Part shown: positions 2,945 to 12,843 of the stretch, piece after piece
Layout of the letters: each line of letters opens with the position of its first letter
How positions within the stretch are numbered: the first letter of the stretch is position 1
Assembly (NCBI GenBank): GCA_031381685.1
Contig: JANMYF010000055.1
Coordinates: 1,589-65,588 of the forward strand
Direction: 5' to 3'
Source: Acidimicrobiia bacterium
GTDB lineage: Bacteria > Actinomycetota > Acidimicrobiia > Acidimicrobiales > JANYDT01
Length of the DNA: 64,000 bases
Notes under the pieces: generated by a model
Told to the model about the DNA's origin: nothing
The model's input: only the letters and a program-made list of their open reading frames with translations
The model's database searches: none
Translations under genes and position numbers: made by a program

Positions 2945-2993
2945 CGCTGCGACGCCGTCAACGTCTGTTGCTGTGCCGTAGTTCATGATCGGG

Positions 2994-3112
2994 TGACGGC
3001 GGATTCAGTCGTGAGAGGTGGTGCAGAGGCTCTCGACCCATTCACACGACCACGGAGAGTGACGAAGATGGGTGCGTGGTCATGGATGACCACCCGAAAC
3101 CTGGAGTACCAC
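2994..3112 (+). promoter_or_regulatory. Conserved 5' leader shared by the two S8 protease paralogs (copy 1)
   Basis: About 85-90% nucleotide identity by eye to 5509-5626. Blocks tcgtgagaGgtggtgcagagGctc and gaccacggagagtgAcgaAgAtgggtgcgtggtc. Complementary segments gtggt/accac and gaccacg/cgtggtc. GGAG lies 6 nt before TTG 3113. Confidence 0.4.
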
Positions 3113-4699
3113 TTGCGACACTTCCCCAAGCCTTCGAACGCCCCCTCCGGAGCCACCTGGCTCCGCCACATACTGCGTGGCCCCACGACAGGCCTCGTTC
3201 TCGGCACAATGCTCGCCGGAGCCAGCCTTGTCCCGGCCTTCGGCGCCCAGCCTGCGTCGGCCGCGGGGTACGACCCGGCCGCCGATCCGTACTCGATGGC
3301 CGCGGTCACCTCGATCACGGGAGCCACGGCGTGGTGGAACGCCGGCTTCACCGGCCGGGGCATTGACGTCGCAGTGATCGACACCGGGGTCTCGCCGGTC
3401 CCCGGCCTCGATGCTCCGGGAAAGATCATCCACGGCGCCGACCTCTCGCTCGAGTCGCAGGCCCCGAACCTCACCCGCATGGACACCAACGGCCACGGCA
3501 CGTTCATGGCCGGGCTCATCGCCGGGAAGGACGCAGCTCTCACGGCGCCGTATGCGAACGCTCCGGCCAGCGCGTATCGCGGGATGGCTCCCGACGCCCG
3601 CATCGTCAACGTCAAGGTAGGCACCGCTGACGGAGGCGTCGACGTGACCCAGGTCATCGCCGCGATCGACTGGGTCGTCCAGCACAAGAACGACAACGGG
3701 ATGAACATCCGCGTCCTCAACCTGTCCTACGGGACGAACTCGTTGCAGAATGCCGAGGCCGACCCGCTCTCGTTTGCCGTCGAGCAGGCCTGGAAGCGGG
3801 GCATCGTCGTCGTGGCCGCGGCCGGGAACAGCGGTTACCAGCGGGGCAAGGGTGCTCCTGGCCTGGCCAACCCCGCCTACAACCCGTTCGTGATCGGTGT
3901 CGGTGGCTACGACACGATGGGCACGGCCCTCCCCAACGACGATGTCATGGGCGTCTACTCGGCGAGCTCAACGGGATGCGGGGCCAAGTGCAAGAACCCC
4001 GACTTCGTTGCCGTCGGTTCGCACCTCCAGGGCCTTCGGGTCCCCAACGGGTACCGGGACGTGACGAGCCCCGAGGGCCGGATCGATGCCCGCTACTTCC
4101 GGGGTTCCGGTACCTCGCAGGCCGCCGCCATCGCCTCCGGCGCGATCGCCCTGATCCTGCAGAAGTACCCGAACCTGACCCCGGACCAGGTCAAGCGCTT
4201 CATCGCCAACAACGGCAAGAAGGTTCCGGGGGCCGATAGCCAGGCCCAGGGTAGCGGCGAGATCGACCTCGCCACCCTCGCCGGCAAGACCCCGGCGGCC
4301 TTCATTCAGACGTTCGCCCCGGCCAAGGGCGGCGGCACGATCGAAGACGCCCGCGGGTCCGATCACCTCACCGCCGACGGCGTCACCCTCACCGGCGAGA
4401 AGGACGTCTTCGGGCGGCCTATCGACACCAAAATACTGGCTCTGGCACAGGCCGCAGGATCATCGTGGTCCGGCGGCACGTGGAACGGCTCCACGTGGTC
4501 CGGGTCATCCTGGTCCGGCTCGTCATGGTCCGGGTCCAGCTGGTCGGGTTCCTCGTGGTCGGGCAGCTCGTGGTCAGGGTCGTCGTGGTCCGGTTCGAGC
4601 TGGTCGGGCTCCTCGTGGTCGGGAAGCTCGTGGTCGGGCTCCTCGTGGTCAGGCAGCTCATGGTCGGGAAGCTCCTGGTCCGGCGGCTCCTGGAACTGA
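3068..4699 (+). CDS. Secreted subtilisin-like serine protease (peptidase S8) with C-terminal Trp-pentad repeat tail
   Basis: Catalytic triad motifs 'VAVIDTGV' (Asp), 'HGTFMAGLIAG' (His) and 'GSGTSQAAAIASG' (Ser). Signal-like 'GLVLGTMLAGASLVPAFGAQPASA'. Start is ambiguous: ATG 3068 has GGAGAG upstream; TTG 3113 has GGAG 6 nt upstream and aligns with the ATG of the paralog. Confidence 0.9.
   Translation: MGAWSWMTTRNLEYHLRHFPKPSNAPSGATWLRHILRGPTTGLVLGTMLAGASLVPAFGAQPASAAGYDPAADPYSMAAVTSITGATAWWNAGFTGRGIDVAVIDTGVSPVPGLDAPGKIIHGADLSLESQAPNLTRMDTNGHGTFMAGLIAGKDAALTAPYANAPASAYRGMAPDARIVNVKVGTADGGVDVTQVIAAIDWVVQHKNDNGMNIRVLNLSYGTNSLQNAEADPLSFAVEQAWKRGIVVVAAAGNSGYQRGKGAPGLANPAYNPFVIGVGGYDTMGTALPNDDVMGVYSASSTGCGAKCKNPDFVAVGSHLQGLRVPNGYRDVTSPEGRIDARYFRGSGTSQAAAIASGAIALILQKYPNLTPDQVKRFIANNGKKVPGADSQAQGSGEIDLATLAGKTPAAFIQTFAPAKGGGTIEDARGSDHLTADGVTLTGEKDVFGRPIDTKILALAQAAGSSWSGGTWNGSTWSGSSWSGSSWSGSSWSGSSWSGSSWSGSSWSGSSWSGSSWSGSSWSGSSWSGSSWSGSSWSGGSWN
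4460..4696 (+). repeat. 15-nt-period coding tandem repeat, 16 x (S-S-W-S-G)-like pentads
   Basis: 79 C-terminal residues 'SSWSG GTWNG STWSG (SSWSG)n GSWN' with one Trp every 5 residues. Ser and Gly codons vary between units. Confidence 0.95.
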
Positions 4700-4730
4700 A
4701 CGAGACCGTCGACCCGTCTTCGACAAAATG

Positions 4731-4758
4731 AAGGAGCCGGCCGCAAGGCCGGCTCCTT
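4731..4758 (+). terminator. Stem-loop downstream of S8 protease 1 (putative terminator)
   Basis: Perfect 12-bp stem aaggagccggcc/ggccggctcctt with a GCAA loop, about 30 nt after the stop codon. There is no long T tract. Confidence 0.55.
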
Positions 4759-4851
4759 CGCCGTTCATGCGCTTTCGGGTGCCGAATCGCAAGATCGGTG
4801 CGAACGTGTTCATCGCCCGGCTTCAGCAGCGGAAGTGTACGGTCGCGGGCC

Positions 4852-5445
4852 ATGCACTCGTCAGAACGAATCGCCTGGATCGACACGATCACCGAAGACG
4901 CAGCCGAGGGTCTGCTCCAAGAGCTCTACGACGCGGAACGCGACAAGTCCGTTGGTGCTGTCGACAACATTCTGAAGGTGCATGCGCTCCACCCCGGGAC
5001 CATGCGTGCACATATCGATCTCTACCGGACCGTGATGTATGGGCGCTCCGGCGTGACCCGCATCGAGCGGGAGATGATCGGTGTGACGGTCTCCAAGATC
5101 AACAGCTGCCACTACTGACTTGCTCATCATGCGGCCGGTCTCGTCCGCCTTTGCAAGGACGTCGCTCTCGTACGCGCGCTTATTGATGACCTCGAGTCAG
5201 CAGAGATCACCGACCGTCAACGCGCCATCCTCGCCTACGCCGTTGGCTTGACGGTCGCCCCGGGCGCAATGATCGAAGACTCACTTGCTCCGCTGCGCGC
5301 GACAGGCCTGTCGGATCGTGACATCCTCGACGTCAACCAGGTCACTGCATACTTCGCCTACGTGAACCGGGTCGCCGATGGCCTCGGCGTGGTGACCGAT
5401 GCCTACGCCCAGGACGCGTACCGCGCCATCGTCGGAACCGACTGA
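4852..5445 (+). CDS. AhpD/carboxymuconolactone-decarboxylase-family peroxidase-related protein with in-frame TGA (candidate selenocysteine, CxxU) at 5116-5118
   Basis: ORFs 4798..5118 and 5248..5445 share one frame, and TGA 5116-5118 is the only stop between them. Readthrough gives '...VSKINSCHY[TGA]LAHHAAGL...', matching the family C-x-x-C/His motif. Start ATG 4852 ('MHSSERIAWID'). Confidence 0.6.
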
Positions 5446-5508
5446 ATGGGCACAGGGGCCAGCGCGCCCGCCCGAACGGCCAGGTAGCGCGGCCCGAGCC
5501 TCAACGAC

Positions 5509-5626
5509 TGACGGTTCGTTCGGTCGTGAGATGTGGTGCAGAGTCTCCCGACTTATTGAGGTGACCACGGAGAGTGGCGATAGTGGGTGCGTGGTCGCGG
5601 AAGATCACCGAAACTTCGGAGCACCT
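5509..5626 (+). promoter_or_regulatory. Conserved 5' leader shared by the two S8 protease paralogs (copy 2)
   Basis: Aligns with 2994-3112. It has a 1-nt length difference in a C run and an in-frame tga relative to copy 1, so the reading frame is not conserved. GGAG lies 6 nt before ATG 5627. Confidence 0.4.
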
Positions 5627-7192
5627 ATGCCTCACTTCCCTCGTGTCACCAATGCCCCATCCGGAACCACATGGCTCCGCAACGCGTTGTGTGGACGCTC
5701 GACGACACGCCACGTTCTCGGCGCCCTTCTCGCCGGAGCCAGCCTTCTGCCGGCCCTCGGCGCCCAGCCCGCATCAGCGGCCGCCTACGACCCGCTCACC
5801 GACCCGTACTCGATGGCCGCAGTCACCTCCACCACCGGTGCCACGACGTGGTGGAACGCCGGCTTCACCGGCCGAGGGGTCGACGTCGCCGTCATCGACA
5901 CCGGCGTGTCACCCGTCCCCGGCCTCGATGCGCCGGGCAAGATCATCCACGGGCCTGACCTCTCGATGGAATCCCAAGCCCCGAACCTGACCCGCCTCGA
6001 CACCAACGGCCACGGCACGTTCATGGCCGGCCTCATCGCCGGCAAAGACGCCACGCTCACCGCCCCCTATGCGAACGCCCCCGCCACCGCCTACCGCGGC
6101 ATGGCCCCCGATGCCCGGATCGTCAGCGTCTAAGTCGGCCCCGCCGACGGCGGCGTCGACGTCACCCAGGTCATCGCCGCCATCAACTGGGTCGTCGATC
6201 ACAAGAACGACCCCGGCATGAACATCCGGGTCCTCAACCTCTCCTACGGCACGAACTCCACCCTGCCCTACGAGCTGAGTCCGCTGGCGTTTGCGGCAGA
6301 ACGGGCCTGGAAAGCCGGCATCGTCGTCGTCGTCGCCGGCGGCAACTACGGCTTCCAGAACCTCCCAAGTAACGCGCCCGCACTCTCCAGCCCGGGCAAC
6401 GACCGGTGGGTGGTGGCGGTCGGTTCGGCCGACACGATGGGAACGCCGGCCCTCGCCGACGACACCGTTCCCTTGTTCTCCCCCTGGTCCGGGCGAGGCG
6501 CGAATCGGAACGTCGATCTCGTCGCCCCCGGCACCCACACCCAGGGCTTGCGGGTCGCGAACAGCCATACCGATGTGAACCACCCCGAGGGGCTGCTCGG
6601 CACCCGGTACTTCCGGGGCAGCGGAACGTCGCAGTCGACCGCCATCATGTCCGGCGCCGCAGCGCTCATCCTGCAGAAGTTCCCGATGGCCACCCCCGAC
6701 CAGGTCAAGATGCTGCTGATGACGAACGCCCAGCCGATCAACGGAAACTCGAAGGGCTTCGGGTCGGGCGAACTCCAGATGGCAAAGACCCTGAGCACCG
6801 GTCTGCCGAACTTCGTACAGAGCTGGCCGTGGTCGACCGGCACCGGCTCGATCGAACTGGCCCGCGGCACCGATCACATCGCCCGTGACGGTGTCGTCCT
6901 CGCCGGTGAGAAGGACATCTTCGGCAAGCCGTGGACGCCCAACCTGGCCGGGAGTTCCTGGTCCGGCGGGGTGTGGAACGGGTCGACCTGGTCCGGCTCG
7001 AGCTGGTCGGGCTCGTCATGGTCCGGATCGTCGTGGTCGGGGTCGTCGTGGTCGGGGTCGTCCTGGTCGGGATCGTCGTGGTCCGGTTCGAGTTGGTCCG
7101 GTTCGTCGTGGTCTGGCTCGTCGTGGTCGGGGTCGTCATGGTCTGGGTCGAGCTGGTCCGGCGGCACGTGGTCCGGTGGGACCTGGGACTGA
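5627..7192 (+). pseudogene. Subtilisin-like S8 protease paralog interrupted by in-frame TAA (6131-6133)
   Basis: ORFs 5399..6133 and 6218..7192 are in the same frame. '...ARIVSV[TAA]VGPADGGVDVTQVIAAINWVV' aligns with '...ARIVNVKVGTADGGVDVTQVIAAIDWVV' of paralog 1. Asp, His and Ser motifs are all present. Confidence 0.8.
6953..7189 (+). repeat. 15-nt-period coding tandem repeat, 16 x (S-S-W-S-G)-like pentads (paralog 2)
   Basis: 79 residues 'SSWSG GVWNG STWSG (SSWSG)n GTWSG GTWD'. Length and phase are the same as in paralog 1. Confidence 0.95.
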
Positions 7193-10431: not shown

Positions 10432-12765
10432 TCAGGCTCCCTGCTCGGTGACGGTCGCGGCGGGCACCGGTGCCGGCGCTCCGTGGCCGGGAGCAGCGTG
10501 GGCTCCGGCCTCGCCCTTGGTGATGACCCGCTTGAGGAAACCGAAGAGGTCCTTCGAGATGCCGCGGAAAAAGATGCCACTCAGCGGCACGAGAAGCAGG
10601 AACCAATTGCGCCACTCCTCGGCTTTGTTCCACAACAACAACGCCACCGGGATTGCCGCGACTGCCGCTCCGGGACCGACGGCGCGGATAGCTTTCAGCC
10701 ACTCTTTGCCCCGGGCCCGCAGCAGCCAGTTCCCGAGATACTGGAAGCCGGGCTGGAGACGTGGTGCGATACCGCCCGGGTTGTGGATGGCCGTGAAGAC
10801 GAGGGCGGCGCCTCCGATGATGCTGGTGAGGTCCACGCTGATCGCGTTGTGGAAGTGGTGGTTCGCCCATGCGGTGATCAGGCCGTTGGCGAAGATGATG
10901 CCGCCGATCATCGCCCCGTTGATCGAGGTGATCCCGCCGAGGTAGGCGAAGGCCAGCACGGAGAGGCTGAGGAAGAACACCCAGTTTGCTGAGCTGATCT
11001 GGCGGGCCTGGTAACCGAACATCACGCCGGAGATGCCAGCGATGGCCGACGCGATGGCGAAGGCGAGGAGCTTGGTGCGCATCACGTTCACGCCTGCCGC
11101 GGCGGCGGCCCGCTCGTTGGCGCGAACAGCGAGGAAGCGCCGACCAGTGCCGCTTCGGCGGATATTGGCGACGAGCACCGCCAAGCCGACGAGCACGACC
11201 ACGGTGAAGATGGCGAACTTCAGACTGCTGTTGAGCCCGTTCTTGCCGACGACGCCGAGGTCGATGCCGAAGAACGTCGGGTTCTTGAGATACGCCGGGG
11301 AACCGGCGGTCTGGTCGGTGAGGAGCTCGTTTTCGAAATAGATGCTCTGCAGACTGACTGCGGCCGCCATGGTGACCACGGCGAGCTGGACACCGCGCAC
11401 CCGAAGCGCCGGAAGGCCGAGAACCACGCCCACCACGACCGAGAAGACGATCCCGATCCCAGCGGCCAGCGGCCACGGAAGACCCGGCCCGCTGACGGGG
11501 AAGGCGGAAACCTCATTGGGCGTGCCGTTGGCGAGCATGCGCGCCGTCATGAACGCAGCACAGCCGGCGATCGACATCTGGGCCAAGGAGATCTGCCCGA
11601 CATAGCCTGTGAGCACGACGTAACTGAGCATGACCATGGCCGTGATCAACGTCGTCGTCACCGAGAAGCCGAACTTGCCACCATCGGCCCAGGCCGCCAA
11701 GGCAATGGCCGCGGCGCCCCAGATGAGGCTGTGCTGCCAGACCCGTTTCGGGTACGGAGCGAGCGGTAGGCGTTTCTCTTCCACCGTGCCTCGGATCGGT
11801 AGCGAGCGACCACGGACGAACAGGACGAACACAATGACGACCAACGGAAGCGCATTCGCGGCCGTTGCCTGCCAGGCCAAGGGGAACCAGCTGTTCGTCG
11901 GCAGCCACACTCCCGCCAGTGTCTGCAGAAGGCCGATGCCGATGCCGCCGGCGGTGGCAAACGGGATCGAGGAAAGCTTGCCGATCAGCGCCGCTCCGAG
12001 CGCCGGCACGACAAGCCCGGTGAACTTGACCGGGTTCAGAGCGCCGGTGATGGAACCGACGAGCACGCCCGCAAGTCCCGCGGCGACCGAGGCCACGACC
12101 CAGTTTGCAAGAGCGAGACGCTCCGGCGAGTACCCGAGGAGAACCGCACCCTTCTCGTTGCCGGCAGCGGCTCGCGTCGCCAGGCCGAAGCGGGTGTAGC
12201 GGAAGAATGCCCAGAGCGCCGCGCCGAAGACGACGGCGAAAACGGCGAGGAAAAACGACTCCTTGGCCAGCGGCTTGCCGAGGCCGAGGAAGTTGTTGAA
12301 CAGACCTTTCGGCAGGACCACCGACGGCTGCGGATTCTCGGTGCCGAAGTTCTTGAGCGCTACTCCTTGGAGGTAGAGCATCAAGCCGAGCGACCCGATC
12401 ACCTTGCCGAGCGGCGCCGCGTTGCGCAGCGGGCGGAACACCAGGTAGTGGGCGACCACACCGAGAAACGCCGACATGGCGAGGGCGATGACGAAGCTCG
12501 GGAACACACCGAGCCCACCACTGTCGATGGTGATACGAACAGGGACGTTCAGCGCATCGGTCGGGAGGAAGTCGATCCAGGGAAGCTGCAGTACGCCCTT
12601 CTTGCGCATCGAATCGAACTCGAAGGCAATGAACATGGCGATCGCACCCTGGGCGAAGTTGATCACGCCCGATCCGCGGAAGGCGATCACGATGCCGATG
12701 GCGATCAGGGCGAAGAAACCGCCTTGACCGAGGCCACCCAACATGATGGCAATGGGGTCTTTCAT
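10432..12765 (-). CDS. Fused LivH/LivM-type branched-chain amino-acid ABC permease
   Basis: A single 777-aa polytopic ORF. The N-terminal half looks LivH-like ('MKDPIAIMLGGLGQGGFFALIAIG...'). The C-terminal half looks LivM-like and has an extra hydrophobic tail. Confidence 0.8.
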   Translation of the reverse strand: MKDPIAIMLGGLGQGGFFALIAIGIVIAFRGSGVINFAQGAIAMFIAFEFDSMRKKGVLQLPWIDFLPTDALNVPVRITIDSGGLGVFPSFVIALAMSAFLGVVAHYLVFRPLRNAAPLGKVIGSLGLMLYLQGVALKNFGTENPQPSVVLPKGLFNNFLGLGKPLAKESFFLAVFAVVFGAALWAFFRYTRFGLATRAAAGNEKGAVLLGYSPERLALANWVVASVAAGLAGVLVGSITGALNPVKFTGLVVPALGAALIGKLSSIPFATAGGIGIGLLQTLAGVWLPTNSWFPLAWQATAANALPLVVIVFVLFVRGRSLPIRGTVEEKRLPLAPYPKRVWQHSLIWGAAAIALAAWADGGKFGFSVTTTLITAMVMLSYVVLTGYVGQISLAQMSIAGCAAFMTARMLANGTPNEVSAFPVSGPGLPWPLAAGIGIVFSVVVGVVLGLPALRVRGVQLAVVTMAAAVSLQSIYFENELLTDQTAGSPAYLKNPTFFGIDLGVVGKNGLNSSLKFAIFTVVVLVGLAVLVANIRRSGTGRRFLAVRANERAAAAAGVNVMRTKLLAFAIASAIAGISGVMFGYQARQISSANWVFFLSLSVLAFAYLGGITSINGAMIGGIIFANGLITAWANHHFHNAISVDLTSIIGGAALVFTAIHNPGGIAPRLQPGFQYLGNWLLRARGKEWLKAIRAVGPGAAVAAIPVALLLWNKAEEWRNWFLLLVPLSGIFFRGISKDLFGFLKRVITKGEAGAHAAPGHGAPAPVPAATVTEQGA

Positions 12766-12843
12766 GGATGCTCCAGGCGAAGAACGCCACAAGTCGATAG
12801 GTGATGGGACGCGGCGCGGGTCGACCCAGCCGGGATACAACAC

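Follow-up and report, generated by a model that had tools for sequence, protein, structure and literature searches.

A conserved in-frame TGA lies within the gene at 4852-5445 of the window, by which we mean the whole analysed stretch of 64,000 nucleotides from an Acidimicrobiia bacterium. This gene very probably encodes one AhpD-fold thiol/selenol oxidoreductase of the AhpD-like selenoprotein family (TIGR01926) with the redox motif C-x-x-U, and the TGA at codon 89 is, with high probability, a codon for selenocysteine (Sec) (Table 1). The full frame carries a TGA conserved among related loci, selection on both of its halves, the pairing of the TGA with Cys in homologous proteins and a conserved hairpin that resembles a bacterial selenocysteine insertion sequence (SECIS).

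Table 1. Features of the predicted selenoprotein gene, in positions of the window.
Feature	Position	Strand	Description
AhpD-like selenoprotein CDS (predicted)	4852-5445	+	197 codons, then terminal TGA 5443-5445; start ATG 4852
Redox motif C86-H-Y-U89 (predicted)	5107-5118	+	with E74 (5071-5073) and H93 (5128-5130); spacing E-x11-C-x-x-C-x-x-x-H
UGA of codon 89, predicted to encode Sec	5116-5118	+	TGA column conserved; pairs with second Cys of C-x-x-C
Two-tier SECIS element (putative)	5119-5157	+	lower stem CUUGC (5119-5123)/GCAAG (5153-5157) plus upper hairpin; MFE -11.6 kcal/mol
SECIS upper stem-loop (putative)	5131-5148	+	arms GCGGCCG / CGUCCGC with one C.U mismatch; loop GUCU 5138-5141

Reading Frame, Family Membership and Redox Motif

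The initial annotation had described two open reading frames (4798-5118 and 5248-5445) that share a frame, are separated by the TGA at 5116-5118 as their sole stop and would yield a product of 197 amino acids when read through, and all of these statements were borne out on re-reading the window. The context at the TGA is ...VSKINSCHY[TGA]LAHHAAGLVRL..., and the column of the start Met at ATG 4852 is the same in the orthologs of four Acidimicrobiia metagenome-assembled genomes (MAGs; L001-L004). With Cys placed at the TGA, the translated protein matches the NCBIfam family TIGR01926 ("peroxidase-related enzyme") with 152.8 bits against a cutoff of 81.8, and the Pfam family CMD (PF02627) with 42.2 bits against 23. 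The closest solved relatives are 3c1l (Mlr4105; E = 2e-34), 6k40 (annotated as AhpD), 2pfx, 2oyo and 2prr, with E-values ranging from 2e-34 to 1e-17, and the alignment with 3c1l, 6k40 and 2pfx runs as a single domain across the TGA from residue 24 to 184. While the window gene is a TGA form, these solved "peroxidase-related" proteins are all Cys forms; they carry Cys at the TGA column within the motif N-x-C-x-Y-C-x-x-x-H, the family hallmark given in the initial annotation, in which the TGA takes the place of the second redox Cys. The C86-H-Y-UGA stretch aligns with CEYC, CAYC, CHYC, CDYC, CYYC and CVYC in L005, P0004, P0005, P0011, 3c1l and 6k40, and Cys occupies the Sec column also in the related locus L033.

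At the level of named subfamilies the AhpD equivalog is not reached, TIGR00777 scoring 20.4 bits against a cutoff of 191.95, and the scores for NF041238 (AhpD_rel_CFYUT; 45.4 against 175) and NF053654 (YciW-related; 30.8 against 310) are likewise below their cutoffs. The ungapped match of residues 58-99 to positions 102-143 of the TIGR00777 profile places E74, C86, U89 and H93 on positions 118, 130, 133 and 137, which are the catalytic and proton-relay residues of Mycobacterium tuberculosis AhpD (PMC3141380). In the mycobacterial enzyme it is the exposed Cys133 that attacks its partner, with Cys130 in a partly buried position (PMC6626918). As the four residues fall on the AhpD relay positions and Cys133 is the attacker, Sec89 would therefore replace the attacking residue. 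It is usually the attacking residue whose place is taken by Sec in redox selenoproteins. The window protein shares with M. tuberculosis AhpD (Glu118, Cys130, His132, Cys133, His137) the fold family and the spacing E-x11-C-x-x-[C/U]-x-x-x-H; in contrast, it has Tyr in the middle of the motif where AhpD has His132, its motif sits in the N-terminal half of a protein of ~190 amino acids, and its gene is flanked by peptidases and not by a peroxiredoxin.

Conservation of the TGA Codon

Related loci were obtained by a one-genome-per-species scan, which gave the four MAGs, by protein-database matches (L006-L009) and by a metagenome scan (L010-L038). The codon-89 column is TGA in 36 of the 38 related loci and TGC in two, at 45-88% protein identity. 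As the peptide patterns used to find these loci were derived from the Sec clade, this is not an unbiased Sec:Cys ratio, but the conservation clearly reaches deep. The genes of all four MAGs, 87-88% identical to the window gene, have TGA at the same codon without any other defect, and TGA is found also in 31 of 33 more distant loci. The initial annotation had considered that closely related genomes might carry TGC or TGT at this codon while the window copy decays further; instead, TGA is present in four of four MAGs and both halves of the gene are conserved. The two TGC codons lie at L033:2746 and L005:6255, and L033, which encodes the peptide HHRAGLAR and in which 4 bp of pairing are left where the SECIS would be, might represent a recent Sec-to-Cys conversion.

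A Conserved SECIS-Like Hairpin Next to the TGA

The hairpin at 5131-5148 (GCGGCC / GGUCUC / GUCCGC) begins 12 nt past the TGA, and an extra G-C pair can narrow its loop to GUCU. The upper hairpin by itself has a folding energy of -6.9 kcal/mol. The lower stem of the two-tier element is kept in L001-L004, with U-A changed to U.G in L003, and is not clearly conserved in clades farther away, and it would therefore be an optional part of the SECIS. The published model of bacterial SECIS elements (bSECISearch) comprises a loop of 3-9 nt, an upper stem of 4-16 bp and a distance of 16-37 nt from UGA to loop, together with a G at loop position 1 or 2, usually followed by G or U, and a minimum free energy (MFE) of -7.5 kcal/mol or lower (PMC13188914). 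The window element, with its 4-nt loop GUCU, a 6-bp stem containing one 1x1 mismatch, a distance of 19 nt and -11.6 kcal/mol, lies within each of these ranges, of which the MFE is a weak one for 5119-5157 as shuffled sequences fold as well.

The hairpin was compared between orthologs. A hairpin with a G-containing loop is found at the Sec column in 29 of 30 non-redundant orthologs (97%), which ranks this column first of 171, while at the other 170 codon columns the same detector finds such a hairpin in 11% of the sequences on average and in no more than 57%. Across the 30 non-redundant TGA sequences the stems measure 4-10 bp and the loops 3-8 nt, of which the first or second is a G, and the apical loop begins 16-19 nt past the UGA, the window lying at 19 nt. 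The loops are of the types GGUCU (18 sequences), GUCU (5), GGG (4), GGGC, CGGGA and CGGUCUGA, and they are carried by 20 different arm sequences, e.g., GCGGCC/GGUCCGC, UCGGCUG/CAGCCGA, CGGCGC/GCGCCG, CGGGCC/GGCCCG, ACGGAGC/GCUCCGU and CGGCGAA/UUCGCCG.

Constraint on the nucleotide sequence was seen within clade A, i.e., 14 sequences that share the peptide HHAAGLVR at 63-88% overall identity. Here, out of 54 windows of six codons, the one formed by the hairpin codons varies least at synonymous positions, with a third-position identity of 0.95 compared to 0.49 elsewhere (Mann-Whitney p = 1.3e-4), and the two His codons immediately 5' of the stem vary freely. The Gly codon of the loop is GGT in 27 of 35 sequences, compared to 21% of the Gly codons elsewhere in the same genes. 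In an ungapped codon-anchored alignment, pairing in a fixed register amounts to 72.8%, compared to 60.4 +/- 2.1 in shuffles (0 of 500) and to 30-52% with slid partners, and at five of the six pairs both partners have changed. From clade to clade the register of the hairpin moves by 1-2 nt, so that the orthologs do not all fit one consensus structure; a fixed register therefore yields only 64-73% pairing, which is an underestimate.

Folding energy was dropped as evidence for a SECIS, the shuffled controls folding equally well: the energy is no better than that of dinucleotide shuffles for stretches of 65 and 121 nt (z = +0.6), and when each sequence is ranked among 500 synonymous-codon shuffles of its own, the median is 0.45, with only 2 of 29 sequences at or below 0.05. 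Shuffled sequences match the native ones because GC-rich Ala, Gly and Arg codons pair regardless. The significance of this putative element stems solely from comparative evidence. No Rfam family matched the window at gathering thresholds, and a search of 5080-5220 at E < 10 returned a lone chance match to a riboswitch on the opposite strand; bacterial SECIS elements are poorly represented in Rfam.

At the protein level, the residues encoded by the SECIS arms, +5/+6 and +9/+10 after Sec (5131-5136 and 5143-5148 in the window), co-vary between clades among L001-L038 as AA..VR, SA..SR, GA..RR, RR..RR, GE..RR and RA..AR around a constant Gly-Leu of the loop. RNA pairing appears to constrain the protein sequence beside the active site.

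The closest parallel is the SECIS of Escherichia coli fdhF. In the K-12 genome GGUCU occupies nt 22-26 of fdhF, counted from the U of UGA, and GGUCU lies at identical positions in the window, with G23 and U24 at the same places in both elements; in both genes the hairpin follows directly 3' of the UGA and Ala-Gly-Leu is encoded at the loop. The stem sequences, in contrast, are unrelated, the window loop is closed by C-G or G-C whereas that of fdhF is closed by A-U, and the window element has a single-nucleotide mismatch on the 3' arm (nt 29) while fdhF has a bulge, U17, on the 5' arm. The earlier statements on the hairpin were upheld: it exists with the described five pairs and one C.U mismatch, and the likeness of the GGUC loop to fdhF is exact. 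The initial annotation had named the lack of a stable SECIS-like fold at the required distance as a point that would refute it; such a fold is present, is conserved in 29 of 30 orthologs and fits the published bacterial model.

TGA as a Stop Codon and the Sec Machinery

Of the 35 complete orthologs 24 end in TGA, as do 30 of the 43 other ORFs called in the window; as the usual stop in both sets, TGA is therefore not a general sense codon. Candidates for further recoding were considered and rejected: the internal stop of a neighbouring S8 peptidase is TAA, hence a plain nonsense codon, and the adjacent same-frame ORF pairs 305-2944/2993-4699 and 10432-12843/9616-10425, considered as other genes with an in-frame TGA, are separate genes of different families. 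An NCBIfam scan of the 30 large ORFs of the window gave no selA, selB or selD, and the window contains no tRNA; in the 38 related loci neither tRNA-Sec nor selA, selB or selD was found. Such negatives say little, as the window spans just 64 kb and the genome several Mb. Complete Sec machinery was reported in Actinomarinales, another order of the Acidimicrobiia (bioRxiv 10.64898/2026.04.03.716425), and Sec decoding is known from several Actinobacteria (PMC5029168).

The best surviving alternative, though very unlikely, is a recoding independent of SelB, either by a near-cognate or suppressor tRNA that would place Trp, Cys or Gly at the UGA or by a genetic code that assigns UGA to an amino acid. 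This would agree with the W that some database entries show at the codon (P0001-P0003, P0033) and with the absence of Sec machinery from the 64-kb window; however, the W of P0001, the one entry checked at the DNA level, is a TGA misread by the depositor's gene caller, and the general use of TGA as a stop speaks against a sense codon. Moreover, Cys in homologs at the same column is the classical Sec/Cys signature, and both the geometry and the loop of the hairpin are as in SelB-binding SECIS elements.

Purifying Selection Across the TGA

Among the window gene and the four MAG genes, with pairwise dS of 0.2-0.58, dN/dS ranges from 0.05 to 0.19 in the N-terminal half and from 0.13 to 0.37 in the C-terminal half, and the downstream half is therefore translated in the frame that spans the TGA. 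The C-terminal half shows no frameshift and no further stop in the close relatives. In the window and its close relatives there is no in-frame ATG, GTG or TTG between the TGA and codon 133, and codons 90-132 are nonetheless conserved (pN/pS 0.40), which argues against a separately initiated C-terminal fragment.

Such a fragment would be needed if the locus were a split gene, in which translation would end at the TGA and start anew for the C-terminal half, so that the protein would consist of two chains and have no second redox residue. Although the codon following the TGA is GTG in 11 of 37 TGA loci, where gene callers start a second ORF, it is CTT in the window and in its close relatives. The solved homologs are single chains through the helix at the TGA position, and splitting would delete the attacking catalytic residue (PMC6626918) and leave the conserved hairpin unexplained, so that we regard this arrangement as extremely unlikely. 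The lowest probability of all, close to nil, is left for a nonsense pseudogene, in which TGC or TGT mutated to TGA, inactivated a Cys-type AhpD-like gene and left its downstream part to decay: a single substitution would suffice for TGC to TGA, Sec machinery is not seen in the 64-kb window and the neighbouring S8 peptidase has a true nonsense codon (TAA 6131-6133), but the same TGA recurs throughout the related loci, which by their dS are not assembly copies of one sequence, the C-terminal half is under purifying selection and synonymous constraint in the gene is strongest at the hairpin codons.

Proposed Mechanism of Sec Insertion and Catalysis

From the reading as a single selenoprotein we infer the actual insertion of Sec, the binding of SelB, the substrate and the reductant. 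In bacteria, SelB carrying Sec-tRNA(Sec) recognizes the SECIS loop, and Sec is inserted at UGA (PMC13188914). By analogy with E. coli fdhF, the hairpin at 5131-5148 would display its G-U-containing loop ~19 nt past the UGA at 5116-5118, SelB with Sec-tRNA(Sec) would bind this loop and deliver Sec to the UGA, and the ribosome would go on to the true stop at 5443-5445. In the predicted protein, Sec89 would take the place of the exposed attacking Cys133 of M. tuberculosis AhpD and Cys86 that of the buried resolving Cys, with Glu74 and His93 in the proton-relay positions. The enzyme may then cycle between the selenol/thiol form and a Cys86-Sec89 selenenylsulfide, reducing a peroxide or an oxidised partner protein.

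Gene Neighbourhood

In the window the selenoprotein gene is flanked by S8 peptidases, and an AhpC peroxiredoxin neither adjoins it nor occurs among the annotated ORFs of the window. The neighbours in relatives are a peptidase and an amidase, a luciferase-like monooxygenase, AurF or a molybdopterin oxidoreductase; they differ between clades, and a conserved partner gene was not found. The molybdopterin oxidoreductase adjoins the selenoprotein gene in distant clades (L018:264-2501 and L009:2236-4275), and the stop of the luciferase-like monooxygenase (L006:2853-3854; also in L007) overlaps the start of the selenoprotein gene. Both enzymes, which are absent from the window, are possible functional partners.

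The second S8 (mycosin-like) peptidase at 5399-7192 (+) is a paralog of the one at 2993-4699 and is interrupted by the in-frame TAA already mentioned, at a codon for Lys in the paralog; the stop context reads RIVSV*VGPADGG, compared to RIVNVKVGTADGG in the paralog. At the syntenic locus of L001 the second S8 peptidase is missing and the amidase directly follows the AhpD-like gene. The interrupted copy looks like a decaying lineage-specific duplicate, or else the result of a sequencing error. Two tandem arrays on the plus strand (4460-4693 and 6979-7176), each of ~12 copies with a 15-nt period, encode (S-S-W-S-G)n, the Trp-rich C-terminal repeat in which both S8 peptidases end. A perfect 13-bp inverted repeat (4730-4759; GAAGGAGCCGGCC/GGCCGGCTCCTTC) separates the selenoprotein gene from the peptidase gene upstream of it; the repeat was scored as terminator-like on the minus strand and suggests that the selenoprotein gene forms its own transcription unit. 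Farther downstream, the ORF at 10432-12843 (-) encodes 803 amino acids, with a first half of the LivH-type permease and a second half of the LivM/UrtC-type, and is followed by an ATPase gene; it is apparently a fusion of both permease subunits of an ABC transporter for branched-chain amino acids or urea.

Annotation in Sequence Databases

The expectation that standard gene callers split this gene proved correct, as database entries hold either two halves, of 87-88 and 108-124 amino acids, or a W at the TGA. The best-scoring database homologs, from clusters that number 28 and 69 members, read "CHYW" (P0001, corresponding to L040:170-718, P0002, P0003 and P0033). In the DNA sequence behind P0001 the W is a TGA; this entry is a low-G+C ortholog of the Sec type, for which the gene caller had used a code with TGA as Trp. 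Some of the ORFs that begin after the TGA (P0038, P0040, P0051, P0052 and P0063) run into an extra C-terminal domain, i.e., PF07081, glyoxalase, a second CMD domain with its own C-R-Y-C, or a SnoaL-like domain, in which case the AhpD-like selenoprotein would be naturally fused to further domains. Proper annotation of the gene is as one selenoprotein, neither as two fragments nor as a pseudogene, and many public copies are mis-called.

Relation to the Known Family and Significance

In 2005, 27 Sargasso Sea sequences of AhpD-like proteins with CxxU were reported to form a new family of selenoproteins (PMC1088965). In the GOS data the family ("AhpD-like 1") ranked fourth in abundance among selenoprotein families, counting 299 sequences (PMC2398784); a review of 2026 places it under TIGR01926 (PMC13188914), and BSepDB has a page of its own for it (PMC13326102). 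The remark of the initial annotation that AhpD-like selenoproteins are already described was thus right (PMC1088965, PMC2398784, PMC13188914). The family (COG2128/YciW, TIGR01926) has in common with the window gene the CxxU motif, in the window with a predicted Sec at the second Cys, and a SECIS of the bacterial type immediately downstream, putative in the window, whose apical loop contains G; Cys homologs are widespread (PMC1088965, PMC2398784, PMC13188914). The published sets consist mostly of marine metagenome reads, whereas the window belongs to a genome of 67% G+C whose closest relatives are MAGs of uncultured Acidimicrobiia; in the literature on the family, no paper was found that names an Acidimicrobiia-like host lineage.

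Family, motif and mechanism are already established, and the knowledge of selenoproteins is unchanged by the window gene. Modestly new are the host lineage, the scale of the mis-annotation in databases and the coupling between SECIS arms and amino acids. We propose tentatively, and with somewhat less than even confidence, that a large high-G+C and mostly non-marine clade related to the Acidimicrobiia uses Sec in this enzyme, whereas reports of Sec use in the class are so far confined to the marine Actinomarinales, and that the SECIS in the active-site helix dictates the residues +5/+6 and +9/+10 while the loop is fixed as Gly-Leu (GGU-CUN) at the fdhF positions. If this is true, the gene would provide a natural example of an RNA structure that drives amino-acid co-variation beside a catalytic site, and the geometry of the SelB-SECIS interaction would be conserved across phyla. 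The gene would further imply that its Acidimicrobiia-like host has a full Sec-insertion system and a need for selenium, and this predicted need may be of use in cultivating or modelling uncultured Acidimicrobiia-like lineages.
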